A DNA stretch of 37,582 bases, taken from the NCBI GenBank assembly GCA_964624805.1, contig CAZUYM010000001.1, positions 1 through 37,582 of the forward strand. The letters run 5' to 3'. The translations under genes were made by a program, and so were the position numbers. This document shows, piece after piece, positions 2,966 to 29,792 of the stretch. Below the pieces are notes generated by a model. It saw only the letters and a program-made list of their open reading frames with translations, did no database searches and had not been told where the DNA came from. The DNA comes from an uncultured Planctomycetia bacterium (lineage in GTDB: Bacteria > Omnitrophota > Gorgyraeia > Tantalellales > Tantalellaceae). Numbering within the stretch: position 1 is the first letter of the stretch; each line of letters begins with the position of its first letter.

Positions 2966-3493
2966 ATGGCAAACGAGATAAAAAGATCAAAAGGATGGTT
3001 TCTGACGGCGGGTATTCTTCTTATGGTTATCGGCATGGCAGCTATTACCGTTCCGTTCGCGTTCTCTATCGCTATTGAGATCCTGGTGGGCTGGGTGCTC
3101 ATAGTAAGCGGTGTTGTACAGATCGTCCATTCGTTCAAAGCGCTTAATACCGGTAGATGCATAATGAGGCTCGTAGGCGGGTTGGTTTATCTCGTGGTCG
3201 GAGGTATCTTCCTGGCTTATCCCATGCAGGGCGTTCTCACTCTAACACTTATCTTGGCGGCTCTCTTTCTCTTCGAGGGTCTTCTGAAGATAGTCATTTC
3301 GCTCCAGCATCGTCCGGAACAGAACTGGGTCTGGCTCCTTATCAGCGGTCTGGCGGGTATTGTTATCGCTACCATCATATGGGCCGGCTGGCCAAGCACC
3401 TCAGCGTGGGTAATAGGCCTTCTTGTGGGGATAAACCTGATATTCGGCGGGATGTCGCTTATAATGCTGTCATCGTCTTTGCACGAGGAATAG
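2966..3493 (+). CDS. hdeD: HdeD/DUF308-family acid-resistance membrane protein
   Basis: 175 aa with six predicted TM helices in the paired-repeat arrangement of DUF308. Resembles E. coli HdeD in layout and in the C-terminal LVGINLIFGG segment. Strong AGGAGG SD. Confidence 0.7.
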   Translation: MANEIKRSKGWFLTAGILLMVIGMAAITVPFAFSIAIEILVGWVLIVSGVVQIVHSFKALNTGRCIMRLVGGLVYLVVGGIFLAYPMQGVLTLTLILAALFLFEGLLKIVISLQHRPEQNWVWLLISGLAGIVIATIIWAGWPSTSAWVIGLLVGINLIFGGMSLIMLSSSLHEE

Positions 3494-3515: not shown

Positions 3516-4940
3516 CTACAACATCATGCTGAGTTCTTCGAGAGACCTGTTCTTGGTCTCTACCCTGAAGATGAGCGTCACCATGAAGGCAAGGACCGAT
3601 AGCATCGCCAGCATGATAAGCGTGAAAGTCATACCCACCGAGGCCTTGACCACCGGCAGCATGAAGATCCCTAAAGCTGCCCCCAGTTTTGCCACCGCCG
3701 CGGCGAACCCGTGACCTGAACCGCGCATATTCGTCGGATAAAGCTCGGCCGGTATTATGAAAGTCGTGGCGTTCGGTCCCATGTTCATAAGAATATTGAA
3801 TATAATGAATCCGGAAAAAACCAGGATAAGGTTTCCGGTATTGCCGGCGTTCGCGACGGTGGAGGCGGCCAGGACCAGAAGCCCCAGTATCATTCCTCCG
3901 AAACCAAAGAGCTGCAGCTTTATGCGGCCCCATTTATCTATAAGCATGATGTTGAGCAGAAACCCCACAACAAGAAAAATATCAAGGAACATCGCTCCTT
4001 CGGTGGCCTTGAAGTCGCTGGCTATTGTGCCGAGGCCTTCCCCTGAAAAGGCCATCGCTGCCAGAATTATGGGCGTAAAGATACCCACGGCATAAGTGAT
4101 GATATCCATAAGAAACCACGGGACGACCGCGAGTGTCGTGCGTTTAATGAATTTTTTATTAAAAAGATCCCTGTAGTTGGACTTTTCAACCTTAAACTCG
4201 TCCGGAAGTTTATGGGCTTCCGCAGCCAGCTTGTGGATCTCGGATCCTCTGGAAGGCACCAGTTTCTTGATAACCTCCGCGGCTTCAGCATGTTTGCCGT
4301 GCAGAAGGTACCACCGGGCGCTTTCGGGAACGGACATCCTTAAGAGGATGACGACGATCGCCGGAAGGGCTCCGAAAGCCAGCATGAAACGCCAGGCTCC
4401 GAAAGAGGGGAATATCTTCAGTATAACCAGTCCCACAGCCGCCCCGGCGGCCATTCCAAGTGCCTGGAAACTGAAAGCTCCTATCAGCATGCGGCCTCGA
4501 GTACGGGCGGGCATGAATGCCGAAATGTAGGAAGCGCATATGGGGTAATCAGCTCCTATGCCTATTCCAAGGAGAAATCGGAACGTTATGAGGGAGACCA
4601 CATTCCACGAAAACGCCGAAAAAAGAGACAAAATAATAAAAACCACCAGATCCAGCATATATAATGCTTTTCGGCCCCACCGGTCGCTCAAAGTCCCGCC
4701 GACCGACGCCCCGACTACCGCGCCCAGGACTGCCGCCGCGCCTATTAAGCCGACTATATAAGGGGAGGTCGGGAAGGTCTTCATTATCAGAGGCAGCGCC
4801 ACCCCTATGATGAAAAGGTCGAAACCGTCCAGGAATATTCCCATCGCGGACAGCCACCATATCTTCCAGTGGACAGGTGTGAGCGGCGCCTCGTCCATCA
4901 GGCGTGTCATCTCTCTGTGAATGGATGCTCGTGTATTCAT
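3516..4940 (-). CDS. MFS transporter (sugar-porter/metabolite:H+ symporter-like), substrate unknown
   Basis: 12-TM layout, motif-A-like GTLSDRWGRK, PESARW after TM6, central cytoplasmic loop. Diverges from the decarboxylase operon. Confidence 0.85.
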   Translation of the reverse strand: MNTRASIHREMTRLMDEAPLTPVHWKIWWLSAMGIFLDGFDLFIIGVALPLIMKTFPTSPYIVGLIGAAAVLGAVVGASVGGTLSDRWGRKALYMLDLVVFIILSLFSAFSWNVVSLITFRFLLGIGIGADYPICASYISAFMPARTRGRMLIGAFSFQALGMAAGAAVGLVILKIFPSFGAWRFMLAFGALPAIVVILLRMSVPESARWYLLHGKHAEAAEVIKKLVPSRGSEIHKLAAEAHKLPDEFKVEKSNYRDLFNKKFIKRTTLAVVPWFLMDIITYAVGIFTPIILAAMAFSGEGLGTIASDFKATEGAMFLDIFLVVGFLLNIMLIDKWGRIKLQLFGFGGMILGLLVLAASTVANAGNTGNLILVFSGFIIFNILMNMGPNATTFIIPAELYPTNMRGSGHGFAAAVAKLGAALGIFMLPVVKASVGMTFTLIMLAMLSVLAFMVTLIFRVETKNRSLEELSMML

Positions 4941-5067: not shown

Positions 5068-5115
5068 TACTGTATTATGAGTTTTTACAGTGCATGCCGC
5101 AATAAAGGAGGAGTT

Positions 5116-7422
5116 ATGAAATCCAACAAGATCACCTGGCCGATATTGATAATTTCAGGACAGTTTAACGAGGCAAACGATGAAGGATTCCGTTTGAGAG
5201 AGCTGGAAGAGGAACTTCTTGAGGTTCAGGAATGCAGCGTGATCCCCTCATTCAGCTACGAAGACGGATATGAGATATTCCGCTCCAGAGCCGATTTCGG
5301 ATGTATCGTTATAGACTGGGATATTCCCTCGGAAACGGCGAAAGAGAAAATATCTCCGATGAAGATCATCCGGCTTATCCGGGAAAGGGATAAAAAAGTG
5401 CCGATACTCCTTTTGACGGGACGCATGGCTACGGGGAACATTCCGGCGGAGACCCTTGAAGATATCAATGAATGTCTCTGGAAAACAGCCGACACTGTGG
5501 AATTTCTGGCAGGAAGGATCGAGAGACACATTTCAGAATACGTAGAGGAAGTCTATCCTCCTTTTTTCGGAGAGCTTGTCGAATATGCCAGCGAATTTAA
5601 ATACGCGTGGCACACCCCGGGCCATATGGGTGGTACCGGTTTTCTGCGGTCCCCGGCGGGCGCGGCATTTTTTAAGTTTTTTGGCGAGAACATGTTCCGC
5701 TCCGACCTTTCGATCTCGGTGCCGGAACTCGGCTCTTTGTTGGATCATAGCGGAGTGACAGGCGACGCGGAGAAGAATTCCGCGAAGGCTTTCGGGGCGG
5801 ATTACAGCTATTATGTCCTGAACGGGACATCTAACGCGAATCAGATCATCTGGAGGAGCCAGCTGGTTCGGGATGATATCGCTTTTGTTGACCGCAACTG
5901 CCACAAATCGCTTAATTATTCCATGGTAATAACGGATGCTTTTCCGGTTTACATGATACCCCGGAGGAATAAGCGCGGTATAATCGGACCTGTGCGCCTT
6001 GCCGAGTTCACACCTTCCTTCATCAAGGGGAAGATAAAAGAGAACAAGCTTATTCCCGCCACGCTTAAAAAGAATAAGGTCAAGATGTCGGCTTTGACGA
6101 ATTCTACCTACGACGGCATCTGCTACAACGTTACAAAAATAAAGAAGCAGCTTGAAAAAAGTGTCGAGAACCTTCATTTTGACGAGGCCTGGTACGCGTA
6201 CGCGCATTTTCATCCTGTGTATAAGGGGTTTTATGGCATGACAGATGAAAAAGTGGACAAAAACCATCCTCCCGTATTTTGTTCCCAGTCCACGCATAAG
6301 CTGCTTACCGCGCTTTCTCAGGCGTCGATGATACATGTAAAGAACGGAGGAGCGGTAAAGGTCGAACCCGATGAATTCAACGAATCGTATATGATGCATG
6401 GTTCCACATCGCCTCAATACACGATGATAGCGTCACTGGACGTTGCTACGCGGATGATGCAGGATAACGGCCCGGTAATGATGAATGATATCATCACCGA
6501 AGCTATCCATCTCAGAAAGAATGTTGTCAGGGTAAAGAAGGAGGTTCAGAAGAAAAAGAAAGGGGACTGGTTCTTTGACATGTGGCAGCCGAAAAAGGTC
6601 AAGGTCAAGGGGAAGATGGTGGACTTTGAAGACGTCGACACCGGCTACCTTGCCGCCCATCAGGACGCGTGGGTGTTAAGCAAAAATAATAACTGGCACG
6701 GGTTCGGCGACATAGAGGATGATTTCGTCATGCTTGACCCGATAAAGCTTACCTTTACGACTCCCGGCATCGACGAGAAAGGAACGATGGCCTCCGACGG
6801 TATCCCGGCTTCAATAGTTACAAACTATCTGATAGATAAGGGAATAGTCTGCGAGAAGACCGATTATTATTCGTTCCTGCTTCTCAATTCTCTGGGTACC
6901 ACCGAAGCCAAACAGGGGACTCTTCTTTCGGCAATGCTCGGTTTTAAAAGGCTTTATGACAGAAACGCACCCTTGAGCGAGGTTTTCCCTGAGCTGGTCA
7001 CGGCCTATCCCGAAAGATACGAAAAGGTGGGTCTCAAAGACCACTCCTCGGCCATACACAAGTATTTCAAGAAACACGCGATACTTGATATGATGCAGGA
7101 GGCCTTTGAGGTCATACCGGACCAGGTCATGAAACCCGCGGAAGCGTATCACGAGGTGGTGCGCAAGAACGTGGAGTACGTCGATCTTAAAGACATGATG
7201 GGACGCGTACCCGCTGTAATGATGGTCCCTTATCCTCCCGGGATACCGATAATGATGGGAGGGGAAGCGATGAATAAAAAGGCAAAACCGATCTTCGAAT
7301 ATCTTACGCGCCGTCAGGACTTCGAAAATGAATTTCCCGGATACGAAAGCGATATCCACGGGGTGGAAAGGACGGAGAAGGACGGGAAAAAATATTTCAA
7401 AACGATGTGCATAAAAAAATGA
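5116..7422 (+). CDS. Large PLP-dependent Orn/Lys/Arg decarboxylase (fold-I, biodegradative type; most like arginine decarboxylase AdiA)
   Basis: N-terminal receiver-like wing domain. PLP-lysine motif SQSTHKLL. DRNCHKS, HFDEAWYAYA, PYPPGIP. Long collinear similarity to my recollection of E. coli AdiA (WFF..W, WHGF, MLDPIK, FKRLYD..APL..V.PEL). ATG at 5116 follows AGGAGG; the ORF-track start at 5077 lacks an SD. Confidence 0.9.
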   Translation: MKSNKITWPILIISGQFNEANDEGFRLRELEEELLEVQECSVIPSFSYEDGYEIFRSRADFGCIVIDWDIPSETAKEKISPMKIIRLIRERDKKVPILLLTGRMATGNIPAETLEDINECLWKTADTVEFLAGRIERHISEYVEEVYPPFFGELVEYASEFKYAWHTPGHMGGTGFLRSPAGAAFFKFFGENMFRSDLSISVPELGSLLDHSGVTGDAEKNSAKAFGADYSYYVLNGTSNANQIIWRSQLVRDDIAFVDRNCHKSLNYSMVITDAFPVYMIPRRNKRGIIGPVRLAEFTPSFIKGKIKENKLIPATLKKNKVKMSALTNSTYDGICYNVTKIKKQLEKSVENLHFDEAWYAYAHFHPVYKGFYGMTDEKVDKNHPPVFCSQSTHKLLTALSQASMIHVKNGGAVKVEPDEFNESYMMHGSTSPQYTMIASLDVATRMMQDNGPVMMNDIITEAIHLRKNVVRVKKEVQKKKKGDWFFDMWQPKKVKVKGKMVDFEDVDTGYLAAHQDAWVLSKNNNWHGFGDIEDDFVMLDPIKLTFTTPGIDEKGTMASDGIPASIVTNYLIDKGIVCEKTDYYSFLLLNSLGTTEAKQGTLLSAMLGFKRLYDRNAPLSEVFPELVTAYPERYEKVGLKDHSSAIHKYFKKHAILDMMQEAFEVIPDQVMKPAEAYHEVVRKNVEYVDLKDMMGRVPAVMMVPYPPGIPIMMGGEAMNKKAKPIFEYLTRRQDFENEFPGYESDIHGVERTEKDGKKYFKTMCIKK

Positions 7423-7451: not shown

Positions 7452-8747
7452 ATGAATTTTTTCCACAAAACACTATCGATGATCCTTGCGATCCTTCTGG
7501 CAGGATGTGTATTCGCTACCTATGGGGAGGCTAACACTTATCGTCGAATAACCAGAACGCATGGGTTGACCCGGGAGAAGGTCGAGCCTGTGAAAGAAGG
7601 GGAACAGGTTAGTAAAGAGCCCGGGCTTACATATGCACCCGAAACCGGGCTCACCGTGGACGCCTGGGACCTGACGTTCGATCCTTCCACCACTTTTGTT
7701 TTTCAGGGCACGCCTGACCCTAATGTGCCAGGCGCCCGAAAGACGGGGGTTTCCTGGGTGCTTTACCTGGATTTTATCAAGAAGTTCGAAGACTGGGGGG
7801 TAGCTTTTTTCGAACTCAAAACCGGTATGGGGCGCGCGCTGGCGAATTCTTTAAGCCTTTTCAACGACGTCAATTATAATTCGGACGACGTCGGAGGGAA
7901 CGCAAAAGCGCATGTTTTCTGGTACAAACAGTTTTTATTCGACAGGCAGCTTTCCATACTCTGCGGCAAGATCCTGTCCCGGGGACTTTTCGCCCAGAGC
8001 GAGTATGCCGGTGACGACGATACGCAATTCCTCGGCTATATCTTCAACGAGTCACCAACGATCGAATGGCCGTGGGATAATGCCTTTACGATAAACTCGG
8101 AATTGTGCCTGGACTCGATGGATTATCTCGAATATTCGTTCAATTACTGGGAAGGCGACGCGGACTGGCAGAAAGTATTTAAAGGCGGGATATACACCAT
8201 GCAGGTCAATGTAAAGCCTTCAAAGTTATTTGACCTGGACAAGTCGCAGTGGGACGGGAACTACAGGTTTTATGCCTGGCTGAACACGCTTTTCCATACA
8301 AAGCTTGTAGATACGGGAAGCACGCCGACGACCGACACGAAGGAATTCAATTACGGTTTCGGGTTGAGCTTTGACCAGATGATAACGGATGTATACGGTG
8401 TATTTGTCCGATGCGGTTTCCAGAGGCCCGACCTTATACCGGCGGCGGGCGGCCCCACGATCGGTTTTTCCTGGGCGGCGGGTGGACAGATGAACGGAAA
8501 GTACTGGGGAAGAGAAAATGATGTTCTCGGTCTCGGGGTAGGGCAGGTGGTGACCAGCAAAGAATACGTGGACGCGGGTAACCCGGGAAAGACCGAAGGT
8601 CATCTTGAAGCATATTACAGTTTCGCCGTGACAGATTATTTGTTTATCAGCCCTGACGCGCAGTTGGTATGGAATCCGGCCGGGGCTCCGGCCGGAGCTA
8701 CGGATCCTGTATTTGTGTACGGTGTCAGAGTGCATGCGGATTTTTGA
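7452..8747 (+). CDS. OprB-family (carbohydrate-selective-porin-like) outer-membrane beta-barrel porin
   Basis: N-terminal signal peptide. Alternating beta-strand pattern. C-terminal EAYYSFAVTDYLFISPDAQLVWNPAG...VYGVRVHADF ends in a terminal Phe, typical of OprB-family barrels. Confidence 0.7.
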   Translation: MNFFHKTLSMILAILLAGCVFATYGEANTYRRITRTHGLTREKVEPVKEGEQVSKEPGLTYAPETGLTVDAWDLTFDPSTTFVFQGTPDPNVPGARKTGVSWVLYLDFIKKFEDWGVAFFELKTGMGRALANSLSLFNDVNYNSDDVGGNAKAHVFWYKQFLFDRQLSILCGKILSRGLFAQSEYAGDDDTQFLGYIFNESPTIEWPWDNAFTINSELCLDSMDYLEYSFNYWEGDADWQKVFKGGIYTMQVNVKPSKLFDLDKSQWDGNYRFYAWLNTLFHTKLVDTGSTPTTDTKEFNYGFGLSFDQMITDVYGVFVRCGFQRPDLIPAAGGPTIGFSWAAGGQMNGKYWGRENDVLGLGVGQVVTSKEYVDAGNPGKTEGHLEAYYSFAVTDYLFISPDAQLVWNPAGAPAGATDPVFVYGVRVHADF

Positions 8748-8784
8748 TAAAGTTATACCAATGGGTTTTAAAAAAAAGGAGAAG

Positions 8785-10203
8785 ATGATGGCAGATCCGA
8801 AAAAAGGCCTTAAGCTGGGGATATTTACCCTCGCGATGATAAATGTTGCCGCGGTACTTTCACTGCGGAGTCTTCCCGCGATGGCGGATTACGGGTACGC
8901 CTTGATCTTTTATCTGGGGTTATCCTCTCTCTGCTTTTTTGTCCCGTCAGCGCTGGTATCCGCCGAACTTGCTTCAGGATGGCCCAAAGAGGGTGGTGTA
9001 TTTTTATGGGTCAAAGAGGCTTTCGGGCCCAAATGGGGTTTTGTCGCGATATTTATGCAGTGGGTCGAGAACCTGCCCTGGTTTCCGGCGGTACTGGCTT
9101 TCGCGGCATCGGCTCTCGCCTATGTCGTAAACCCGGCGTTGGCGTCCAATAAACTGTTTGTTATAGTGGTCATATGGGTCACACTCTGGATAGCTACATT
9201 CCTTAATTTCAGGGGGATGAAATTATCCGCTTTTCTCAGTTCCTCGGGTGTTATTTCCGGAACGATCATACCAGGAGTCCTTATTATTATCCTCGGGGTA
9301 ATACACGTATTTTCCGGAAAGACTCTCGCCATAACATATTCACCCGCCGCGCTTATCCCCAAGCTTGACAACCTTAACCAGTTAATGCTGCTTTCCGGTA
9401 TGATGATGGCCATTTCCGGCATGGAAATGTCTGCCGTTCACGTTACCGACGTCGAGAATCCTAAGAAAAATTTCCCGAAAGCTATCTTTATCGCCTGCGC
9501 GATAATTATCTTTTTATGCGTTGTGGGGTCCCTGTCGATAGCCATAGTCATACCGAGAATGGACATGAGTTTAAATGCGGGTGTATGCCAGGCTTTTGCC
9601 GAGTTGTTCAAAATTCACGGTATTCCCTGGATAATGCCGATAATATCCATACTTTTGGCTTACGGCGCGATTACGATGGTCGTGACATGGATGGTGGGAC
9701 CGTCAAAAGGTATGCTGGAGGTGGCAAAAGACGGATATCTGCCAAAATTCATGCAAAAGCAGAATTCCTACGGGATGCCTACCGGCACCCTGATCGTGCA
9801 GGGAGTATTCTCGAGTATAATTTCTTTAGCCGTTCTTTTTATGCCGACCGTCAGCAGCGCGTTCTGGATAATGAGCGCGCTGGCCGCGCAGCTATACCTT
9901 GTCATGTATCTTTTGATGTTCGCCGCGGCCATTAAACTGCGCTATTCTCAGCCGGAAGTCGAAAGGGCGTACGCGATCCCCGGCGGGAAGATCGGCATGT
10001 GGCTGGTTTCGGGAGTGGCGTTTGTTACGTCTCTTTTTGTTATTGTGTTCGGTTTTATTCCCACCTCCGCCGTACGTAAGGAAGGGCCGCCTGCCGTGAT
10101 CGCGTATGTCGGGTTCCTTCTTATAGGGGTGGTAGTTTTCGTTGCCGCGCCGCTTGTCTTGTATCACAACGAAGAGAGAAGAAAAAGAAAGGCGATACAA
10201 TAA
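8785..10203 (+). CDS. APC-superfamily amino acid/amine antiporter, glutamate:GABA antiporter (GadC)-family-like
   Basis: 12-TM permease. Collinear with recalled E. coli GadC blocks: GGVFLWVKEAFGPKWGF vs GGVFAWVSNTLGPRWGF; LNAGVCQAF vs LSAGVMQTF; WMVGPSKGM vs WIVGPSRGM; AIPGGK vs NIPGGK. Lacks the long GadC C-terminal plug. ATG at 8785 follows AGGAG. Confidence 0.85.
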   Translation: MMADPKKGLKLGIFTLAMINVAAVLSLRSLPAMADYGYALIFYLGLSSLCFFVPSALVSAELASGWPKEGGVFLWVKEAFGPKWGFVAIFMQWVENLPWFPAVLAFAASALAYVVNPALASNKLFVIVVIWVTLWIATFLNFRGMKLSAFLSSSGVISGTIIPGVLIIILGVIHVFSGKTLAITYSPAALIPKLDNLNQLMLLSGMMMAISGMEMSAVHVTDVENPKKNFPKAIFIACAIIIFLCVVGSLSIAIVIPRMDMSLNAGVCQAFAELFKIHGIPWIMPIISILLAYGAITMVVTWMVGPSKGMLEVAKDGYLPKFMQKQNSYGMPTGTLIVQGVFSSIISLAVLFMPTVSSAFWIMSALAAQLYLVMYLLMFAAAIKLRYSQPEVERAYAIPGGKIGMWLVSGVAFVTSLFVIVFGFIPTSAVRKEGPPAVIAYVGFLLIGVVVFVAAPLVLYHNEERRKRKAIQ

Positions 10204-10220
10204 GTAGCGCCTTTCTTTTG
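10188..10220 (+). terminator. Possible intrinsic terminator at the end of the antiporter gene
   Basis: AAAGGCG (10188-10194) pairs with CGCCTTT (10208-10214), 13-nt loop, then CTTTTG. Overlaps the stop codon. Confidence 0.35.
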
Positions 10221-10237: not shown

Positions 10238-11083
10238 TTATTTACTGAAGCCCTGTGCTTTTTCCCATTCGGGCAATGTCATTGAAAGCATGTCAGACGG
10301 CAGAGCGCCTTTGGGTATGGCGTTTTTAGCGAACACGGCATACGGAGCGCAGGTGAGCGCGCATCCCACGTAACCTTCCGGTATCCATTCGGTCTTATAT
10401 CCCAGGAAGATCTCCTTGTACTTGACGTTCGAATCGTCGCCGCAGCGCACGATGCTTGTAGCGATATTTTCCATCAGCTTATCGAGATAGGCCACTCTGG
10501 CTTCGTCGCTGTCATGAGGAATGGAATCACCGGCATCTTCGATAAAAAGGTTAGAATCTTTCTCCCGGTCTTCGGCTATCGCCAGAGCGATAGCGCACCA
10601 GATGGAAGTAGGTCCGGTGACCGTATTATCTTTGACCGCGCAGTTCACGTGAGCTCCCGGGAGCAGGGGAAACCTTCTCTGGTCGTTAGTCCCGAAAAGG
10701 CGGCTGCCCGCGTTAAGCAGGGGTTCGACTGAATATACCGGGATCTCGACCCCATCTGAGCGTTTTCTGGTGAATAAAGGCTTAATGGATCCGTCGGCGA
10801 TCGATTCCTGCTTTGCCAGATGGTATCCCCAGACCGCGCCGTTGAGGCCGTTAAAAGAAGAGGCGGCGATCATATTTATCTGTCCCACGTATGTGCCCAG
10901 GGTCTCGGCCCTGTCGTATGAGACGATAGTCTCCAGGACAGTATCCATATCTTTTTTCACCTTGCCGGTCTGAAGCTTCAGGACGGAGATATATCCTAAG
11001 CCAGTCGCTCCGGGGTTTCCGTATCCATCACAATATGAGTCAAAGGGTCCGACTGCTCCATTTACTATATCTTCCAGCTTCAT
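10238..11083 (-). CDS. hdcA: Pyruvoyl-dependent histidine decarboxylase proenzyme (HdcA-like)
   Basis: IVSYDRAETLGTYVGQINMIAASSFNG matches the Lactobacillus 30a HdcA block IVSYDRAETKNAYIGQINMTTASSFTG, which contains the Ser-Ser autocleavage site (codons at 10856-10861). Further collinear similarity (SIWCAIALA, LFIEDAG, PEW). The ORF track starts at a GTG (11092); the ATG at 11083 has better spacing from AAGGA. Confidence 0.85.
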   Translation of the reverse strand: MKLEDIVNGAVGPFDSYCDGYGNPGATGLGYISVLKLQTGKVKKDMDTVLETIVSYDRAETLGTYVGQINMIAASSFNGLNGAVWGYHLAKQESIADGSIKPLFTRKRSDGVEIPVYSVEPLLNAGSRLFGTNDQRRFPLLPGAHVNCAVKDNTVTGPTSIWCAIALAIAEDREKDSNLFIEDAGDSIPHDSDEARVAYLDKLMENIATSIVRCGDDSNVKYKEIFLGYKTEWIPEGYVGCALTCAPYAVFAKNAIPKGALPSDMLSMTLPEWEKAQGFSK

Positions 11084-11206
11084 GATGATCACCGTCCTTT
11101 TTTGGTTGTAAGCGTATATTATATCGCACCATCACCGTCCTGAAAATAAGAAAATGGGAGAGAGATCCAAATAGCTGCCGCCCCTGAGCTAAAACTGCCA
11201 GGAAGC

Positions 11207-11241: not shown

Positions 11242-11310
11242 TCTAACTGATCCCCGTTCGCGCGGGGATGGCAGCCACGAGGATGTTAGTTCTTAACCTC
11301 GTGGTTTTTT
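11242..11310 (+). ncRNA. Candidate ~70-nt small RNA or terminating leader of typA (two hairpins, second is an intrinsic terminator)
   Basis: Lies downstream of the promoter above. Hairpin 1 is ATCCCCG/CGGGGAT (11250-11256/11263-11269). Hairpin 2 is CCACGAGG/CCTCGTGG (11275-11282/11297-11304) followed by T6 (11305-11310). Confidence 0.35.
11275..11310 (+). terminator. Intrinsic terminator-like hairpin 55 nt upstream of typA
   Basis: Perfect 8-bp GC-rich stem, 14-nt loop, T6 tail. Confidence 0.6.
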
Positions 11311-11365: not shown

Positions 11366-13192
11366 ATGTCGAATCAAAAGAGAAGAAAAGATATAAGGAA
11401 TATCGCGATCATCGCGCATGTCGATCATGGCAAAACCACGCTTGTCGACGCGCTGCTGAAATATACCGGCGCGTATGATTTTAAATCCGGGGAAACCACG
11501 ATCATGGATTCAAATCCTCTCGAGAAGGAGAGAGGGATAACCATACTTTCCAAAAACGCTTCACTTCAATATAAGGGGGTGCAGTTTAACATAGTCGACA
11601 CCCCGGGACATGCTGATTTCGGCAGTGAAGTGGAGAGGATACTTCAAATGGTAGATGGGGTGCTTCTTCTGGTGGATGCTTTTGAAGGGCCGATGCCGCA
11701 GACAAAATTTGTATTAAAAAAATCTCTGGAGCTGCACCTGAAGCCGATACTTGTAGTTAATAAGCTGGACCGTCCTCACGCGCGTCCAAATGAAGTCGCC
11801 GATATGACTTTTGATCTTTTCTGTGACTTGAACGCTACGGATGAGCAGCTCGATTTTCCCATAGTGTACGCCTCGGGAAAGGACGGGTACGCGACACTCG
11901 ACCTTGATGAGCCGAGCGATTCCGTGAAGCCGCTTCTTGAGACTATACTGCACAGGGTACTTCCCCCGGTAGCTGACCCGGATATGCCTTTTCAGATGCT
12001 TGTTACGATGCTTGATTATGATTCATATGTAGGCATTATAGCTATTGGGCGCATATTTCACGGAGAGGTCTGTGTCGGAGAAACTGTTTCGGTTGTAAAA
12101 CGTAACGGCACTGTCGATAAGGCTAAAGTAACAAAGATAATGAAATATAAGGGATTAGTGCGTGTAGAAGCCGATAAAGCGATCGCGGGGGATATTATTA
12201 CTCTTGCAGGAATGGAAAATGTGCAGGTTGGCGAGACGCTGGCCTCTCTTAAAGATCCAAAGGGACTTCCAACAGTAAAGATCGATGAACCGACGATCTC
12301 CATGAATTTTTCTCATAATACCAGCCCGCTTGCCGGTAAGGATGGAGGAAGATTTTTAACGTCCAGGCATATCCGCGAACGACTGCAGCATGAAGCAAAG
12401 ATAAACGTCGGGATAAAGGTTGAAGAGGCAGATGGAGGCGAGCGCTTCAAAGTTTCGGGACGGGGAGAATTGCATTTATCCATATTGATAGAGACGATGC
12501 GCCGGGAAGGATATGAGATGGAAGTGTCCCGGCCTCAGGTAATTTTAAAAAAATTGGGGGACCAGGTGCTTGAGCCTGTTGAGGAAGTAGTGATCGAAGT
12601 AGATCCCCAATATCAGGGCTCCGTTATGCAGGCTATTGGAGAGCGCAAAGCGGCGATGCAAAAGATGGAGACAACTTCAGCCGGCGCGATGAGGATGGAA
12701 TTCACTATCGCCTCCAGAGCGCTTATCGGGTTCAGGAGCGATTTTTTGCTCATGACGCGCGGCAACGGGATCATGTACCAGAACTTTCTGGAATATCAGA
12801 CATATAAAGGGGATATGCCCGAGAGGCAGAGGGGGGTGCTCGTTTCACAGTCGGCGGGTGAGGCGGTTGCCTACGCGCTTTTTAATCTGCAGGCGAGGGG
12901 AGAGATATTTATCAGTCCCGGGGACGACCTTTATGAGGGGATGGTCCTGGGGGTCAACAATAAGGGAGTCGACCTGGTTGTCAACGCTTTGAAGGGTAAA
13001 AAACTCACTAATATGCGTTCGTCCGGGTCCGACGACGCTATTCAGCTTATCCCTCCCCGGGAAAAGACGCTTGAATTCGCTCTTGAGTTTATCGAAGATG
13101 ATGAACTGGTCGAGATAACCCCCCAGAATATCCGGATCAGAAAGTCTCATTTGACCGAGAACGCCCGCAAGCTGATAAATAAGAAGAAATAA
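11366..13192 (+). CDS. typA: Translational GTPase TypA/BipA
   Basis: G1 AHVDHGKTT, G3 DTPGH, G4 NKLD. EF-G-like domain order with the BipA-specific C-terminal domain. 608 aa. Confidence 0.95.
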   Translation: MSNQKRRKDIRNIAIIAHVDHGKTTLVDALLKYTGAYDFKSGETTIMDSNPLEKERGITILSKNASLQYKGVQFNIVDTPGHADFGSEVERILQMVDGVLLLVDAFEGPMPQTKFVLKKSLELHLKPILVVNKLDRPHARPNEVADMTFDLFCDLNATDEQLDFPIVYASGKDGYATLDLDEPSDSVKPLLETILHRVLPPVADPDMPFQMLVTMLDYDSYVGIIAIGRIFHGEVCVGETVSVVKRNGTVDKAKVTKIMKYKGLVRVEADKAIAGDIITLAGMENVQVGETLASLKDPKGLPTVKIDEPTISMNFSHNTSPLAGKDGGRFLTSRHIRERLQHEAKINVGIKVEEADGGERFKVSGRGELHLSILIETMRREGYEMEVSRPQVILKKLGDQVLEPVEEVVIEVDPQYQGSVMQAIGERKAAMQKMETTSAGAMRMEFTIASRALIGFRSDFLLMTRGNGIMYQNFLEYQTYKGDMPERQRGVLVSQSAGEAVAYALFNLQARGEIFISPGDDLYEGMVLGVNNKGVDLVVNALKGKKLTNMRSSGSDDAIQLIPPREKTLEFALEFIEDDELVEITPQNIRIRKSHLTENARKLINKKK

Positions 13193-13320: not shown

Positions 13321-13358
13321 ACCACAGGGTTAGGAACATAATCGCCTTGTGGTTTTTT
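13321..13358 (+). promoter_or_regulatory. Terminator-like hairpin inside the csp 5' leader (possible attenuator or thermosensor element)
   Basis: ACCACAGGG (13321-13329) pairs with CCTTGTGGT (13345-13353) with one G-U pair, 15-nt loop, T-run to 13358. Lies 50 nt before the ATG. Confidence 0.45.
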
Positions 13359-13408
13359 GCATTAGGCCTTATTTACGGTAAAGTAATTTTTAACAGGAGG
13401 TAGAAGCA

Positions 13409-13612
13409 ATGGCAACAGGAACAGTAAAATGGTTCAATGACTCAAAAGGTTATGGTTTTATTACACCGGATGACGGAAGCAAAGATTGTTTCGTTCATCA
13501 CAACGCGATCCAGGGCGAAGGTTTCAAGTCTCTGGGCGAAGGCCAGAAGGTCCAGTTTGACGTCGAAGAAGGCGCCAAAGGTCCGCAGGCTACAAATGTA
13601 GTAAAGCTGTAA
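13409..13612 (+). CDS. cspA: Cold-shock domain protein (CspA family)
   Basis: 67 aa. RNP1 KGYGFI and RNP2 CFVHH motifs. AGGAGG SD. Confidence 0.95.
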
Positions 13613-13629
13613 TTTGCTGAATAGAAGAT

Positions 13630-13664
13630 AAGGCCTGGCAAGAAATTGCCAGGCCTTTTTTTTT
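13630..13664 (+). terminator. Strong intrinsic terminator after csp
   Basis: 11-bp perfect stem (AAGGCCTGGCA/TGCCAGGCCTT), 6-nt loop, T-run of about 9. Confidence 0.85.
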
Positions 13665-18768: not shown

Positions 18769-20019
18769 ATGAATATAGAGATAATGAGATACATAGACTG
18801 CTACTGCGGGGTGCCGATCACCTTTGCGCTGACGTGGATGTTGAGGGTGATATCGGTATTCTCGCCAAAAGGCGGGATAAAGCCCAAAAAGATATTGTTC
18901 ATAGAACTGTCAGAGATGGGGAGCGCTATACTCGCCGACCCTGCCATGCGGAAAGCCCGGAAGGCCTTTGACGCCGAACTTTTTTTCTGTATATTCGAAC
19001 GGAATAAAGAAAGCCTGCTCCTTCTAAGGACTATAGAAAAAAATAACGTTTTTACGCTTCGCGACACAAATCTTTGGACGCTTCTCACCGACAGCATAAA
19101 GTTCTTTTTCTGGACGAGGAAAAGGAGGATAGACACTGTTGTGGACCTCGAACTTTTCGCGAGGGTCACCGCCATTCTTACGGGACTTTCCGGAGCGCGG
19201 AACCGGGTCGGGTTCTTTTCTTTTTACAATGAGGGTTTATACCGAGGGAACATGATGACGCACAAGGTGGCCTATAACCCGCATATCCACATTGCTAAGA
19301 ACTTCATGGCATTGGCCAACGCCCTTATCTCGGATAACGGAGAGATCCCGTATTCGAAGACCCGTGTCGGGGATGAGGAAATAATAGCTCTTGAAAAAAT
19401 TTATCCGGATACTAAGGAAAAGGCCCGCATGCTGGAGAAGGTAGGGGACGTATATCCTGGATTTGACCAGAAAAAAGACCATGTAGTACTGGTTAACGCC
19501 AATGTCGGAGATCTTCTCCCTCAGCGCCGCTGGCCTATTGAGAGATTTGCCGGACTTATCAAGAGAATACTTGAGCGTGACAGGAACGCGCTGGTCCTTT
19601 TAACCGGAGCGCCTTCGGAACGGGAAGGGTTGCAACTGCTGGAGGAGATGGTTCCCGGGGGACGGTGTGTGAATTTTGCCGGTGAAGTTAAATTATCAGA
19701 ATTACCGGTGCTTTATTCGATCGCGTCATTTATGGTAACCAATGATTCCGGCCCGGGACATTTTTCGTCCGTGACCGATATGCCCACGTTCATATTGTTC
19801 GGCCCGGAAACTCCGGCCCGCTACGGCCCGCTCGGTAACGGAACGGCGATATACGCGGGACTTGCGTGTTCGCCATGCGTTACCGCGGCGAACCACCGCA
19901 AAACTCCCTGCAAAGATAATGTCTGTCTTCAGGTCATATCCGAAGAAGAAGTGTTCAGCAAAATAGAAGCATATTTGAACAAAAAAGAAGCGGAGTCTGC
20001 CACCGATATAAAAAAGTGA
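18769..20019 (+). CDS. Glycosyltransferase family 9 (LPS heptosyltransferase-like)
   Basis: GT-B layout. TNDSGPGHF motif followed by LFGP. Confidence 0.75.
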   Translation: MNIEIMRYIDCYCGVPITFALTWMLRVISVFSPKGGIKPKKILFIELSEMGSAILADPAMRKARKAFDAELFFCIFERNKESLLLLRTIEKNNVFTLRDTNLWTLLTDSIKFFFWTRKRRIDTVVDLELFARVTAILTGLSGARNRVGFFSFYNEGLYRGNMMTHKVAYNPHIHIAKNFMALANALISDNGEIPYSKTRVGDEEIIALEKIYPDTKEKARMLEKVGDVYPGFDQKKDHVVLVNANVGDLLPQRRWPIERFAGLIKRILERDRNALVLLTGAPSEREGLQLLEEMVPGGRCVNFAGEVKLSELPVLYSIASFMVTNDSGPGHFSSVTDMPTFILFGPETPARYGPLGNGTAIYAGLACSPCVTAANHRKTPCKDNVCLQVISEEEVFSKIEAYLNKKEAESATDIKK

Positions 20020-23322: not shown

Positions 23323-23393
23323 TTAATTCGACCATATTATTTACGCTTCTTGTTGTCGCGTAAATAATGGTCTCTAAAAAAAGGAGGAAGAAA

Positions 23394-24119
23394 ATGAGTT
23401 TGCTCGGAACGAAGGAAGATTTGAAGACACTGGTGGAGAAGCTGAACTTCAAGGAGAAAGTGGATAGGTCGCTTCAGCTGATAGATGAAGCTTACCGTAA
23501 ATTCGGTGACGGTCTTGTCGTGGCTAACAGCCTGGGAAAAGATTCCGTCCTGGTATGGGACCTTGCTAAAAAGGTAAGCCCCGACATAAGGGGTTTTATC
23601 GTGACGACGCGTTTCAAACCGAAAGAAACTATTGATCTCATGGATGATGAGGTCGCCAGGTATCCGGAGATGAAAATTTTTAAAAATGACGCGCCTGTAG
23701 CGGATAAACTTTATGAAACACAACCTGACAAATGTTGTGATATACTAAAGGTCGAGCCTACAAGACAGGCCATTGATGAAATGAAAGTCGATTGTTGGGT
23801 TACCGGTCTGCGTTGTACGGAAGGAAGAACGCGAACAGATTTCGAAGAGGTCGAGGAACGGGATGAGGGGCTGGTTAAACTCAATCCTATTCTCATCTGG
23901 AAAGAAAGGGAAGTCTGGCAGTATCTGGCTCTTTATGGAGTGAAGGTCAATCCTCTTTATAAGGAAGGATATCGTTCTCTTGGCTGCGCTCCGTGTTCGA
24001 AGATAACTACGGATGACAATGAGCGTGCCGGACGATGGATAGGGACAAGTAAATGCGGCGGCGAATGCGGCATACATACCAGGCCTCTTAAGAACAATAT
24101 GGATGGCGAGGGTATTTAA
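23394..24119 (+). CDS. cysH: Assimilatory adenylylsulfate (APS) reductase, Fe-S-containing CysH-family
   Basis: PAPS_reduct fold (ANSLGKDS). Cys pair KCCDILKVEP plus GCAPC (the CC...CxxC 4Fe-4S ligand pattern of APS reductases). C-terminal ECGIH catalytic motif. AGGAGG SD before the ATG at 23394. Confidence 0.85.
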   Translation: MSLLGTKEDLKTLVEKLNFKEKVDRSLQLIDEAYRKFGDGLVVANSLGKDSVLVWDLAKKVSPDIRGFIVTTRFKPKETIDLMDDEVARYPEMKIFKNDAPVADKLYETQPDKCCDILKVEPTRQAIDEMKVDCWVTGLRCTEGRTRTDFEEVEERDEGLVKLNPILIWKEREVWQYLALYGVKVNPLYKEGYRSLGCAPCSKITTDDNERAGRWIGTSKCGGECGIHTRPLKNNMDGEGI

Positions 24120-24133
24120 ACTCGGAGAAAAAA

Positions 24134-24607
24134 ATGGATTATCTGCCGGTAGCGGTAAAACTCAAAGGACGAAGAGTAATAGTTGTCGGCGGAGGAAAAG
24201 TGGCGCTGCGCAAGATCCAAAATTTTCTGGATGCGGGCGCCCTTGTTCATGTAGTGTCGCCTTTGCTTGAGACAGAGGTCAAAGGGCTTCACGAACGGGG
24301 AGAGATAACCTGGACGCCGCGGAAGGTATCCGATGAGGATATTTCTGACGCGGTACTTCTTGTATCCGCGACGGATGATACTGAGACCAACGAGAGGGTG
24401 AGCCGCCTGGCCAGAGAAAGAGGCATACCGGTCAACGTCGTTGACCAGCCCATCTTGAGCGATTTTATTTCTCCAGCGGTCATCCGTGCGGATAAAGCGC
24501 TGATCGCCGTATATACCGACGGCAAGGATCCGGTCCTATCCAGGGACCTCAAGGATTATTTAAAGGAAAAGTGGAATGATTTTCTTCTGTTTAGGGATAG
24601 ATCATAA
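24134..24607 (+). CDS. sirC: Short precorrin-2 dehydrogenase / siroheme synthase N-terminal-domain protein (SirC/CysG-N-like)
   Basis: VVGGGKVALRKIQNFLDAGALVHVVSP Rossmann motif. 157 aa. Confidence 0.75.
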   Translation: MDYLPVAVKLKGRRVIVVGGGKVALRKIQNFLDAGALVHVVSPLLETEVKGLHERGEITWTPRKVSDEDISDAVLLVSATDDTETNERVSRLARERGIPVNVVDQPILSDFISPAVIRADKALIAVYTDGKDPVLSRDLKDYLKEKWNDFLLFRDRS

Positions 24608-25586
24608 AAGTTCCCCCCTTCGCGACAGGGAAGAAGCGTTCAGGTCGAGGCGGAGAATAGAGAAGGCTTGTCTCGATGTAGGAGTCAGCGCGCGAGCGCT
24701 GTTTACCTGCAACAGGACGGAGATCTACGGAGAGGCCGCAGATGATGCCGCGGCTTTGGTCATCACCCGGCGCATATGTGCCGCTTTCCCGGATGTTTTC
24801 GAAAAGGCTTATATCAAGGCAGGCGACAGGGAAGTGTTCCGCCATGCCTTGAGGCTGGCCGCAGGTCTTGAATCACAGTTGATCGGAGAACGAGAGATCC
24901 TGGCGCAGCTTGATGCCTGGAACAGCACAAACGAATCCCCGGACATGTACGGTTTCTGGGCCGGTATACTGGGTATAGCCCGGGGTATTAGGGAACATTC
25001 CGGACTTGAGGGAGTTGTTTCAAATATCGCGGAGCTCATACGGGATGACCTGAGGAAGCGGATCTCTCCGCATGGACCCAGGTCGATAGCTGTCGTGGGC
25101 ACCGGAAAAATAGCGGAACTTTTTGCCGAGAACTCCAGATCTGACGAAGAGATCTTTTTCGTCGCTCGAAAAAGGCATAAAAAAGCAAGACGACTGGCCA
25201 GGAGATCCGGCGCTCAAGCAGTCCTGGTTAGCGATCTCCCGGAGATACTTTCAGTAGTTGACGCCGTCGTAAGCGCTACTTCCAGCCCCCACCGGGTGTT
25301 GAGTGAAAAAGATCTGGCGCATGTGACGGGAAAAAGAAAATCTGATCTTTACATATACGACCTTGCCGTACCCGGAGATGTGGCTCCCGGAGCAGGAGAC
25401 CTGGAGGGGGTAGTTTTGAACAGGCTTGATGGCCTGAAGACGGTTTTTGACGAACATAATGCATCGGCGGGCCGCTGTATCGCAAAAGCGGAAATGTTAG
25501 TTGAGAAGGCTATACTGAGAAGAGAAAGGGAAGAAAAAGAAAATGGAACTAAGAGTAGGGACACGTACCAGTCCGTTAGCGCTTAA
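24576..25586 (+). CDS. hemA: Glutamyl-tRNA reductase (short form)
   Basis: GIDHKSSPLRDRE, catalytic Cys in TCNRTEIY, NADPH loop VVGTGKIAE. 336 aa. Overlaps sirC by 32 nt and hemC by 44 nt. Confidence 0.85.
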   Translation: MIFFCLGIDHKSSPLRDREEAFRSRRRIEKACLDVGVSARALFTCNRTEIYGEAADDAAALVITRRICAAFPDVFEKAYIKAGDREVFRHALRLAAGLESQLIGEREILAQLDAWNSTNESPDMYGFWAGILGIARGIREHSGLEGVVSNIAELIRDDLRKRISPHGPRSIAVVGTGKIAELFAENSRSDEEIFFVARKRHKKARRLARRSGAQAVLVSDLPEILSVVDAVVSATSSPHRVLSEKDLAHVTGKRKSDLYIYDLAVPGDVAPGAGDLEGVVLNRLDGLKTVFDEHNASAGRCIAKAEMLVEKAILRREREEKENGTKSRDTYQSVSA

Positions 25587-26190
25587 GCAGATAGATGAAC
25601 TACGAGAAAAGGTCCCGGGAGTCGTATTCCGGACGGTCGGGATAGAAACAAGGGGAGACAAGGATAAGACGACCCCGCTTGACTCGGTTGAGAACGGCGA
25701 TTTTTTCACGCATGAAATTGAGCAGGCACTTTTGGCCGGCGAGATAGATGTCGCGGTGCACAGCGCGAAAGACCTGGAAGAAAATATACCGGAGGAGCTT
25801 GTAACGGCGGCTGTAACGGCATCGATAAGCAGGTTCGACTGTCTGGTCTCGGGAGGAGGCCAGACATTCTGTACTCTGCCAGGACAAGCGATAGTTGGCA
25901 CCAGCAGCAAGACAAGGAAAGACGGGGTCCTCGGATATCGCAATGACCTTGTCGTCCGGGATATCCGTGGGGATATAGATGAAAGGCTCGAGCTTCTCGA
26001 TGAGGGTGACTATGACGCTGTGATAGTGGCGCAGGCTGCTCTTATGCGCTTGGGGTACTATGAAAGAATGACCGGGGTGATCCCTTTCAGCATAATAGAG
26101 CCTAACCCTTTGCAGGGAAGTTTGGCGGTGCAGGTGCATAGGGAAAGGAAAGATCTCCAAGAAATATTCAGGTTAATAGATGGGAAATAA
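25543..26190 (+). CDS. hemC: Hydroxymethylbilane synthase domains 1-2 only (C-terminal domain 3 absent)
   Basis: LRVGTRTSPLALKQ, VHSAKD, IVGTSS, GDIDERL, YDAVIVAQAAL, QGSLAVQV align along E. coli HemC up to about residue 220. The ORF then stops at 215 aa. Confidence 0.8.
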   Translation: MELRVGTRTSPLALKQIDELREKVPGVVFRTVGIETRGDKDKTTPLDSVENGDFFTHEIEQALLAGEIDVAVHSAKDLEENIPEELVTAAVTASISRFDCLVSGGGQTFCTLPGQAIVGTSSKTRKDGVLGYRNDLVVRDIRGDIDERLELLDEGDYDAVIVAQAALMRLGYYERMTGVIPFSIIEPNPLQGSLAVQVHRERKDLQEIFRLIDGK

Positions 26191-26899
26191 ATCAGGAAAA
26201 GTATATATAGTCGGCGCGGGTCCCGGTGATCCGGAGCTGATAAGTGTTAAAGGCCTGAATGCCTTAAAGGCGGCGGACTGTATTCTTTATGATTTTCTGT
26301 CCGCGCCGGAACTTCTGTCGTACGCGAAAGAAGACGCCGAACAAATATGTGTGGGAAAATCCGACGGGTTACACCTGAAAGAGCAGGATGAGATCAACCG
26401 GCTGTTGTATGAAAAGGCGGATGAACATGAAAAAGTTGTACGGCTCAAAGGGGGTGATCCTTTTGTTTTCAGCAGGGGCGCTGAAGAAGCGGACTTCCTG
26501 GGATCTAAAGGGGTGGACGTAGAGGTCATCCCCGGCATAACTTCGGCGTTCGCGGGGCCGCTCGCCGCCGGCATTCCGCTCACCGTCAAGAACGAGGTGC
26601 AGTCGGTGGCGGTGGTAACGGGGCGAAAAAAAGACCCGGATGCCGAGATAGACGCTCCGAATGCGGGAACGCTTATATATCTTATGGCCGTAGCTAATAT
26701 AGCGAATGTGGTAAAAGCTTTGAGAAAAAGTGGCAGGGGCAATGATGTTCCATGCGCGTTCATCGAAAAAGTTACAAGGCCCGATCAGCGTGTAGTTGTG
26801 GCTACTGTAGGAACAGTAGAGGAAAAGGTAAAAACCGAGGATATAAGACCGCCGGCGGTATTTATTGTCGGAGAAACGGTAAATAAGATAAAGAGATGA
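26180..26899 (+). CDS. cobA: Uroporphyrinogen-III C-methyltransferase (SUMT; CobA/SirA)
   Basis: VYIVGAGPGDPELISVKG, VRLKGGDPFVF, VIPGITS. 239 aa, no fused HemD domain. Confidence 0.9.
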   Translation: MGNKSGKVYIVGAGPGDPELISVKGLNALKAADCILYDFLSAPELLSYAKEDAEQICVGKSDGLHLKEQDEINRLLYEKADEHEKVVRLKGGDPFVFSRGAEEADFLGSKGVDVEVIPGITSAFAGPLAAGIPLTVKNEVQSVAVVTGRKKDPDAEIDAPNAGTLIYLMAVANIANVVKALRKSGRGNDVPCAFIEKVTRPDQRVVVATVGTVEEKVKTEDIRPPAVFIVGETVNKIKR

Positions 26900-27804: not shown

Positions 27805-27805
27805 A

Positions 27806-29035: not shown

Positions 29036-29055
29036 AAGAAGGAACAGGAGGGGAA

Positions 29056-29787: not shown

Positions 29788-29792
29788 GGAAT

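Follow-up and report, generated by a model that had tools for sequence, protein, structure and literature searches.

The 37,582-nucleotide (nt) contig CAZUYM010000001.1 (assembly GCA_964624805.1), called the window here over its full length, carries a gene for a pyruvoyl-dependent histidine decarboxylase (HDC) on the reverse strand at positions 10238-11083. This gene, hdcA, lies next to genes for an antiporter, an outer-membrane porin and a second decarboxylase. Its product is probably a functional cytoplasmic enzyme that forms a proton-consuming module together with these three proteins. The assignment of the enzyme rests on its family profile, its active-site residues, its predicted fold and the selection acting on the gene, while the module is deduced from gene order in the window and in related loci.

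The hdcA gene and its product

The gene, its predicted chains and the adjoining signals are as follows.

10238-11083, reverse strand: hdcA-like gene for a pyruvoyl-dependent HDC proenzyme of 281 residues without signal peptide, supported by PF02329, fold and purifying selection
10859-11083, reverse strand: predicted beta chain, residues 1-75, ending at Ser75 and aligning to beta residues 16-81 of the Lactobacillus saerimneri 30a (L. 30a) enzyme
10241-10858, reverse strand: predicted alpha chain, residues 76-281, with F77, K151, F180 and E182, aligning to L. 30a alpha residues 2-218
10856-10861, reverse strand: Ser75-Ser76 codons (tct tct), the predicted serinolysis site, read directly from the sequence
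11118-11146, reverse strand: sigma-70-like promoter match TTTTCA-17-TATAAT, 5' of hdcA in the hdcA-typA spacer (consensus scan, 10/12)

An intact, full-length frame runs from an ATG at 11083 to a TAA stop at 10240-10238. The protein matches the Pfam family PF02329 (HDC) with 283.8 bits (E=1.8e-84; cut-off 25 bits), its residues 5-279 covering profile positions 7-291 of 294, which is far beyond chance. The L. 30a chains deposited in the PDB (1PYA/1HQ6) are also recovered by sequence, at E=4e-31 for alpha and E=1e-13 for beta. When an AlphaFold2 model of the protein (predicted local distance difference test, pLDDT, 78.6; predicted template modelling score, pTM, 0.82) was compared with the PDB using Foldseek, the sole significant match was 1PYA_B (E=6e-15, target-normalised TM score 0.74), and pyruvoyl arginine decarboxylases appeared only remotely, at E~1e-2. 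According to the model, the enzyme would adopt the alpha/beta sandwich fold of HDCs. The first-pass annotation had called the protein a pyruvoyl-dependent HDC, and both profile and fold agree with that identity.

The start codon is shared with homologues (consensus MKLEDVVNGAVGPFD). An in-frame GTG at 11092 would lengthen the protein by three residues, and since a stop codon sits just upstream of this GTG, a signal peptide has no room. A Shine-Dalgarno (SD)-like sequence lies upstream of hdcA. Sigma-70-like sites are no commoner in the hdcA-typA region than in shuffled sequence, which makes the promoter match weak evidence.

Comparison of the gene with six relatives gives 9-16% nonsynonymous differences (pN 0.09-0.16), with synonymous differences (pS) saturated at 0.7 or more. 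The ratio of nonsynonymous to synonymous substitution rates (dN/dS) is far under 0.1 where it can be estimated. The low pN and the saturation of synonymous sites show that purifying selection on the protein has been strong and that the divergences are old.

Cleavage site, active site and substrate

The protein carries IVSYDRAETLGTYVGQINMIAASSFNG, including the block SYDRAE..Y.GQINM..ASSF.G. This hallmark block, and the Ser-Ser site placed at 10856-10861 by the first-pass annotation, both read exactly as claimed. Within A74-S75-S76-F77, an instance of the conserved (T/A)ASSF motif of the family, Ser75 is encoded by 10861-10859 and Ser76 by 10858-10856. Both serines are invariant across the 35-member clade of the window enzyme, and the residue equivalent to Ser82 of L. 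30a is serine in 112 of 115 other family representatives.

The residues I59/Y62/D63/E66/S81 of the L. 30a enzyme correspond to I53/Y56/D57/E60/S75 of the window enzyme, and S82/F83/K155/F195/E197 correspond to S76/F77/K151/F180/E182, with identical residues in every case. These ten positions, which constitute the active site and substrate pocket according to structural and mutagenesis work (reportedly that of Gallagher in 1989, McElroy and Robertus in 1989, and Pishko and Robertus in 1993), are invariant in the 35-member clade except for the F195 equivalent (34/35, with leucine in one). D63 presumably binds the imidazole of the substrate, and we know of no specificity other than histidine within PF02329. 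The earlier suggestion that the substrate could differ from histidine finds no support in a pocket identical at all ten positions, which argues strongly for histidine as the probable substrate.

HdcB and maturation

The reference operon hdcP-hdcA-hdcB-hisS, found at a Limosilactobacillus reuteri plasmid locus (L033), includes the gene for HdcB (Pfam PF17528). The first-pass annotation had noted that no hdcB-like open reading frame (ORF) flanks hdcA, and this holds not only for the flanks, which consist of a 34-nt gap to the antiporter gene and a 282-nt gap to typA, but also for all 448 six-frame ORFs of the window. The scans covered every six-frame ORF of at least 40 residues in the window and in 37 other loci. 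No match to any of the 448 window ORFs was obtained with L. reuteri HdcB (phmmer --max, E up to 10) or with a hidden Markov model (HMM) of 74 HdcB clusters (best E=10). Among the 37 other loci, HdcB was found only in L033, which served as the positive control (E=5e-85).

The distribution of HdcB is narrow. Only 74 clusters at 90% identity exist in 5.8 billion proteins, and all named ones belong to Lactobacillales or Clostridium. The hdc loci of Staphylococcus capitis and Clostridium perfringens are described as being without hdcB (review, PMC6351943), and the present scan of the S. capitis plasmid locus gave the same result. Near pyruvoyl hdcA genes in general, hdcB has been found only "occasionally" (Mou et al. 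2021, PMC8465708). Given its restriction to a narrow set of Firmicutes and its absence from the hdc loci of S. capitis and C. perfringens, HdcB appears to be dispensable elsewhere, and its absence can be taken from these sequences as the rule outside a narrow Firmicutes group. An ORF of 81 residues downstream of relatives with a signal peptide was considered as an alternative maturase and rejected, as the equal-length ORFs are unrelated between loci and the window has none.

The antiporter, the AdiA-like decarboxylase and the porin

The genes beyond the 3' end of hdcA, and the repeat that separates them from it, are listed below in order of position.

2966-3493, forward strand: HdeD-family (DUF308) acid-resistance membrane protein (Pfam DUF308 81 bits; NCBIfam HdeD 87.9 bits, below cut-off)
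3516-4940, reverse strand: major facilitator superfamily (MFS) transporter, between the HdeD-like and adiA-like genes
5077-7422, forward strand: AdiA-like biodegradative decarboxylase of the Orn/Lys/Arg family, dependent on pyridoxal 5'-phosphate (PLP), 781 residues (Pfam OKR_DC_1_N/OKR_DC_1/OKR_DC_1_C)
7452-8747, forward strand: OprB-family outer-membrane porin with N-terminal signal sequence (Pfam PF04966, 80.9 bits)
8758-10203, forward strand: GadC/TyrP-like amino-acid/amine antiporter of the amino acid-polyamine-organocation (APC) family, convergent with hdcA (Pfam AA_permease_2, 231 bits)
10183-10219, no strand: inverted repeat overlapping the antiporter stop, a likely bidirectional terminator (16-nt arms, 94% complementary, 5-nt loop, T/A runs on both sides)

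The antiporter matches the NCBIfam models for GadC best, with 498 and 460 bits (below their cut-offs), followed by TyrP with 342 bits, and in the PDB it comes closest to E. coli GadC (4DJI, 230 bits, vs 46 for AdiC). Its substrates are presumed to be histidine and histamine, possibly also arginine and agmatine. Across several phyla, 20 of 31 related loci have a homologue of this antiporter adjoining the HDC gene. It lies directly upstream on the same strand in most of these 20 loci, often overlapping the HDC gene or within 25 nt of it. By identity to the window antiporter, those beside the relatives' HDC genes form one group at 69-82% and another at 38-47%, and the three sampled from the second group also have GadC and TyrP as their best NCBIfam models. 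Firmicutes hdc loci contain an unrelated carrier (NF040512, "histam_anti_2") instead. The pairing of a GadC-like carrier with a pyruvoyl HDC has been described for "Verrucomicrobiota" and Actinobacteriota (Mou et al., PMC8465708).

The AdiA-like enzyme scores 736.6 bits on the NCBIfam arginine decarboxylase model, below the cut-off of 1167. Among PDB entries, 6Q6I matches it best (702 bits), and it is closer to AdiA of E. coli (623 bits) than to lysine decarboxylase (524 bits). The order AdiA-like gene, antiporter gene, HDC gene, abutting on one strand, recurs in three loci (L002, L027 and L021), whose proteins are 90, 82 and 82% identical to those of the window, and it is also present in Actinomycetota loci. 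Relative to L002, L021 and L027, the window differs in two respects: hdcA is inverted and converges with the antiporter gene, and the porin gene is inserted between the adiA-like and antiporter genes. Flanking inverted repeats were considered as a cause of the inversion and discarded, the region containing only the terminator-like hairpin and short pairs at chance level.

The porin gene starts 29 nt downstream of the adiA-like gene and abuts the antiporter gene, so that all three lie on one strand with gaps of at most 29 nt. No NCBIfam or PDB sequence match to the porin was detectable. Its only detectable metagenome relative (51% identity) is encoded in locus L038:1-4187 (contig Ga0208325_1003040). 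After it, on the same strand, come a 529-residue protein with an aminotransferase fold, as large as aspartate 4-decarboxylase (AspD), and then a transporter of the AspT aspartate:alanine antiporter family (Asp-Al_Ex/TrkA_C). A decarboxylase/antiporter pair therefore accompanies this porin type in both of its occurrences. As a separate observation, the N-terminus of the porin, MNFFHKTLSMILAILLAGCVFATYGEA (7452-7530, forward strand), contains an LAGC lipobox-like motif, and the protein may receive a lipid anchor instead of being processed by signal peptidase I. The HdeD-like gene is possibly part of the same acid-stress neighbourhood, to judge by its proximity.

Relatives of the HDC and the host

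A collection of 5.8 billion proteins contains 713 homologues of the window HDC. The best 120 of them are metagenomic proteins of about 280 residues that are 68-88% identical to it. Candidatus Auribacterota, Omnitrophota, Planctomycetes, Chlamydiota and "bacterium BMS3Abin01" appear among their source names, and the annotation "histidine decarboxylase, pyruvoyl type" is already attached to several. Within the GTDB species representatives, members of the clade are found in Omnitrophota (87%), Planctomycetia, Chlamydiae, Syntrophales/Desulfarculaceae/"Deltaproteobacteria" and Legionellaceae, with a sister group in Solirubrobacteraceae and Acidimicrobiaceae that is 64-66% identical to the window HDC. 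Family members are also found on plasmids of Salipiger, Methylocystis and Rhizobium, and the family as a whole comprises about 370 clusters at 50% identity among 1.84 billion representatives.

Pyruvoyl HDC clusters with an antiporter have been catalogued in Proteobacteria, Bacteroidota, Fusobacteriota and "Verrucomicrobiota" (Mou et al. 2021, PMC8465708). The "Verrucomicrobiota" genome in that catalogue is the Chlamydiae metagenome-assembled genome (MAG) CG10_35_9, which is locus L016 of the present set and encodes an HDC 78% identical to that of the window. Taken together, the 713 homologues, the diderm MAGs, the plasmids and this catalogue run counter to the first-pass view that a pyruvoyl HDC is unusual in a diderm.

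The placement in a phylogeny of pyruvoyl HDCs, which the first-pass annotation had proposed, was obtained with a neighbour-joining (NJ) tree. The window HDC falls inside a tight multi-phylum diderm clade, and the L. reuteri/L. 30a and S. capitis enzymes form a separate clade. Recent horizontal transfer was considered as the explanation of this tightness and rejected on account of the saturated pS of 0.7 or more. Because synonymous sites are saturated, the high protein identity within the clade reflects constraint and not recency. Transfer of the HDC between phyla is implied by the tree, but it would be old. A horizontally acquired island was likewise looked for by base composition and rejected, the guanine-plus-cytosine content being flat at 0.43-0.52 along the window with no signal.

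Two further genes bear on the host.

11366-13192, forward strand: typA, adjacent to hdcA
18769-20019: glycosyltransferase family 9 (GT9) heptosyltransferase-family gene (Pfam 72 bits, below NCBIfam equivalog cut-offs)

TypA is 91% identical to Candidatus Omnitrophota proteins, and the named sequences among its best 120 matches are all Omnitrophota or Omnitrophica except for two ("PVC group bacterium" and "bacterium"). The affiliation of TypA, the OprB porin with its signal peptide and the GT9 gene, all on one contig, make a diderm host well supported, in line with the first-pass expectation. Of the three diderm markers on which that expectation had relied, the OprB porin was recovered as such and the lipopolysaccharide (LPS) heptosyltransferase as a member of the GT9 family. 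The TolC-type gene was not: Pfam gave no match to the outer-membrane efflux (TolC) family in window ORFs of at least 120 residues or at either window end, the 3' one coding for a small CsoR/RcnR-like protein.

Proposed mechanism

In the proposed mechanism, the cytoplasmic 281-residue proenzyme would cleave itself between Ser75 and Ser76 without HdcB, yielding a beta chain of 75 and an alpha chain of 206 residues, and the N-terminal Ser76 of the alpha chain would become the pyruvoyl cofactor. The OprB porin would admit basic amino acids, including histidine, across the outer membrane, and the GadC-like antiporter would exchange the external amino acid (histidine) for the internal amine (histamine). 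The HDC would convert histidine into histamine and CO2, consuming one cytoplasmic proton per turnover. The AdiA-like enzyme would do likewise with arginine via the same carrier, so that two cofactor classes would share one antiporter. The net effect would be alkalinisation of the cytoplasm and acid tolerance, a contribution to the proton-motive force, or both, provided by a chromosomal module of an Omnitrophota bacterium.

Several observations weigh against this mechanism. On the NCBIfam equivalog model TIGR00541 (hisDCase_pyru), the window HDC reaches 256.5 bits, below the cut-off of 346.65, and characterised HDCs are only about 40% identical to it. Judged by these scores, the enzyme is a family member outside the TIGR00541 equivalog range, which was calibrated on Firmicutes enzymes. 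The antiporter scores only 49.5 bits on his_histam_anti (TIGR04298), does not have NF040512 among its matches, and shares only 24% identity with L. reuteri HdcP, a protein that reaches 895 bits on NF040512. In addition, hdcA converges with the antiporter gene instead of being transcribed together with it, which sets the window apart from related loci. No antiporter gene neighbours the HDC genes of the closest relatives (87-88% identical, Omnitrophota loci L006 and L036), and the porin gene is present in none of the other HDC loci examined.

Alternative explanations

The alternative that survives best, unlikely as it is, assumes a real pyruvoyl HDC that makes histamine for another use, such as a precursor, signal or osmolyte. 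Production would then be uncoupled from transport and the adjacency of the genes an ancestral remnant. Such a view would account for the location of hdcA on the other strand, behind a spacer and a promoter-like site of its own, and for the closest Omnitrophota relatives (L006, 87%; P0002/L036, 88%) standing alone among unrelated genes. It does not explain why the GadC-like antiporter family keeps its place beside the HDC gene across phyla in those 20 of 31 loci, or why the trio of AdiA-like enzyme, antiporter and HDC recurs at 82-90% identity. The nearby HdeD-like acid-resistance gene also speaks against it, as does the result of Pfam scans of the window ORFs, which revealed no histamine-consuming biosynthetic cluster.

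Less probable again is an HDC-fold pyruvoyl decarboxylase acting on another substrate, for example another basic or an aromatic amino acid. The pocket residues of L. 30a, I59, Y62, D63, F195 and E197 included, are all identical in the window enzyme and, apart from the F195 position, do not vary in its clade, which is difficult to reconcile with a change of specificity. What this alternative can draw on is the TIGR00541 score under its cut-off, the identity of about 40% to characterised enzymes together with the separate NJ clade, and a transporter closest to glutamate/glutamine-gamma-aminobutyrate (GABA) and tyrosine-tyramine antiporter models rather than to HdcP.

A decaying hdcA, cut off from its operon by the inversion relative to its relatives and left immature for want of HdcB, which is reportedly required for efficient HDC maturation in Streptococcus thermophilus (Trip et al. 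2011, as cited elsewhere), is very improbable given an intact full-length frame with every catalytic residue kept, dN/dS far under 0.1 where estimable, an SD-like sequence and a promoter-like site upstream, and an entire diderm clade that is strongly conserved yet without HdcB. A functional cytoplasmic HDC in a proton-consuming module is thus retained as the probable explanation.

Comparison with known systems

The best-studied counterpart is HdcA of L. 30a and L. reuteri (1PYA, PF02329), with which the window HDC shares fold, family, the ASSF Ser-Ser motif and the active-site residues. D53 of the pH-sensing helix of the L. 30a enzyme is also kept, and D54 is replaced by Thr. The window HDC differs from this HdcA in being about 40% identical to it and about 30 residues shorter, and in belonging to a separate clade. 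Compared with the L. reuteri hdc locus, the window is without hdcB or hisS, its transporter belongs to another APC subfamily, and its host is from a diderm candidate phylum. The classical Firmicutes operon hdcP-hdcA-hdcB-hisS is therefore matched neither in HdcB nor in an HdcP-type antiporter, and, unlike in that operon, no tRNA-synthetase domain that could represent a histidyl-tRNA synthetase paralogue occurs among the window ORFs.

A closer parallel is found in the three-component clusters of adiA, antiporter and hdcA described as "two-decarboxylase, one-transporter" (Mou et al. 2021, PMC8465708). The window contains the same trio, with a pyruvoyl hdcA, a gadC-like antiporter gene and a PLP-dependent adiA-like gene, and likewise has no hdcB. 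It differs from these clusters in its Omnitrophota host, a phylum that is not in their list, in the additional OprB porin and in the inverted hdcA.

For the porin, the relevant precedent is the aaxABC system of Chlamydia, whose arginine:agmatine exchange, carried out by a pyruvoyl decarboxylase together with an APC antiporter, is stimulated by the porin AaxA (PMC2720952). AaxA has been classed in the OprB superfamily (bioRxiv 10.1101/2025.07.10.664186). As in AaxABC of Chlamydia pneumoniae, an OprB-superfamily outer-membrane porin, an inner-membrane APC antiporter and a self-cleaving pyruvoyl decarboxylase are encoded together in the window, self-cleavage being a prediction for the window enzyme. 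In contrast to AaxABC, the window decarboxylase belongs to PF02329 and not to the small PvlArgDC type, the two being only remote structural relatives (Foldseek E~1e-2). The window antiporter is GadC-like and not AdiC/AaxC-like, and there is an extra PLP-dependent decarboxylase. By analogy of architecture, the window system can be described as a counterpart of AaxABC and not as a member of it.

The acid resistance (AR) systems AR2 (GadA/B-GadC) and AR3 (AdiA-AdiC) of E. coli follow the same logic of a proton-consuming decarboxylase and a substrate/product antiporter. The PLP-dependent enzyme of the window is nearest to AdiA, the antiporter is nearest to GadC, and an HdeD-like gene lies nearby. 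The window differs from AR2 and AR3 in mixing an AdiA-like enzyme with a GadC-like carrier and in adding a pyruvoyl HDC and a dedicated porin, and all of its scores are under the equivalog cut-offs.

Relatives with a predicted signal peptide

The conserved N-terminal motif provided an anchor for 118 of the 120 closest homologues, and 24 of these (about 20%; 70-80% identical to the window HDC) have an N-terminal extension of 22-52 residues. In the manner of a Sec signal peptide, each extension opens with K/R-rich sequence, continues into a hydrophobic core and closes with an AxA-like end. The extended homologues include P0017, P0019, P0022, P0027, P0028, P0034, P0041, P0045, P0049, P0054, P0058, P0061, P0066 and P0075, and extended HDC genes are located at L008:639-1598, L014:7887-8852, L015:991-1971, L039:5001-5960, L041:3252-4199 and L042:5001-5960. 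Six extended members sampled in the NJ tree form one sub-clade. In all four extended-HDC contexts with enough flanking sequence (P0017, P0034, P0066 and P0075/L014), an adjacent APC antiporter gene is absent. The extensions suggest that these relatives are exported, periplasmic pyruvoyl HDCs, a type to which the window HDC does not belong. No literature on a periplasmic pyruvoyl HDC was found in the searchable library.

Novelty and significance

Diderm pyruvoyl HDCs, gadC-type partners, adiA/antiporter/hdcA trios and loci without HdcB have already been published, on computational grounds only (PMC8465708). The elements that are new here are the Omnitrophota host, the inserted porin and the inverted hdcA, and a search of the available library returned no paper linking Omnitrophota with histidine decarboxylase. 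Mechanistic novelty is possible only from the porin-containing arrangement and from the signal-peptide variants among the relatives. These two can be combined in a joint reading, which is offered tentatively and is on balance doubtful. According to it, OprB porins would be dedicated parts of decarboxylation/antiport modules beyond Chlamydia, as in the window and L038, and the diderm HDC clade would be split into cytoplasmic, antiporter-coupled forms and Sec-exported, antiporter-free forms. If this were true, the exported forms would be the first periplasmic proton-consuming amino-acid decarboxylases.

Omnitrophota are tiny uncultured bacteria whose physiology is largely unknown. If the window enzyme is active, histamine production and decarboxylation-driven acid or energy homeostasis would extend to this phylum, and HdcB would not be generally needed for the maturation of pyruvoyl HDCs. 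The textbook rule that pyruvoyl enzymes are Gram-positive and PLP-dependent ones Gram-negative no longer holds. Polymerase chain reaction (PCR) and annotation screens for histamine producers that are built on this rule miss a large environmental clade.

Other features of the window

The typA leader (11250-11310, forward strand; typA start at 11366) contains two stem-loops. The arms of the second lie at about 11275-11282 and 11297-11304 (CCACGAGG/CCTCGTGG) and are followed by TTTTTT, an arrangement that resembles an intrinsic terminator or attenuator. Neither stem-loop has an Rfam match at the gathering threshold. Rfam and tRNA scans near hdcA returned nothing besides the following element, about 2.3 kb away.

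13348-13660, forward strand: cspA thermoregulator (RF01766; 101 bits vs a gathering score of 78), covering the leader and coding region of a cold-shock gene

The cold-shock protein gene itself (67 residues) occupies 13409-13612, and a strong bidirectional terminator with a 12-bp stem follows at 13630-13657.

Further downstream, a co-oriented cluster for sulfate assimilation and sirohaem/tetrapyrrole synthesis extends over 23367-30461 on the forward strand, with an Rrf2 regulator in front. Its genes encode a 3'-phosphoadenosine 5'-phosphosulfate (PAPS) reductase, NAD_binding_7, GlutR, porphobilinogen deaminase, TP_methylase, ALAD, a class-III aminotransferase, a NIR_SIR sulfite/nitrite reductase and a second PAPS reductase. 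Within this cluster, the ORFs for GlutR (336 residues) and porphobilinogen deaminase (215 residues) are unusually short and overlap.

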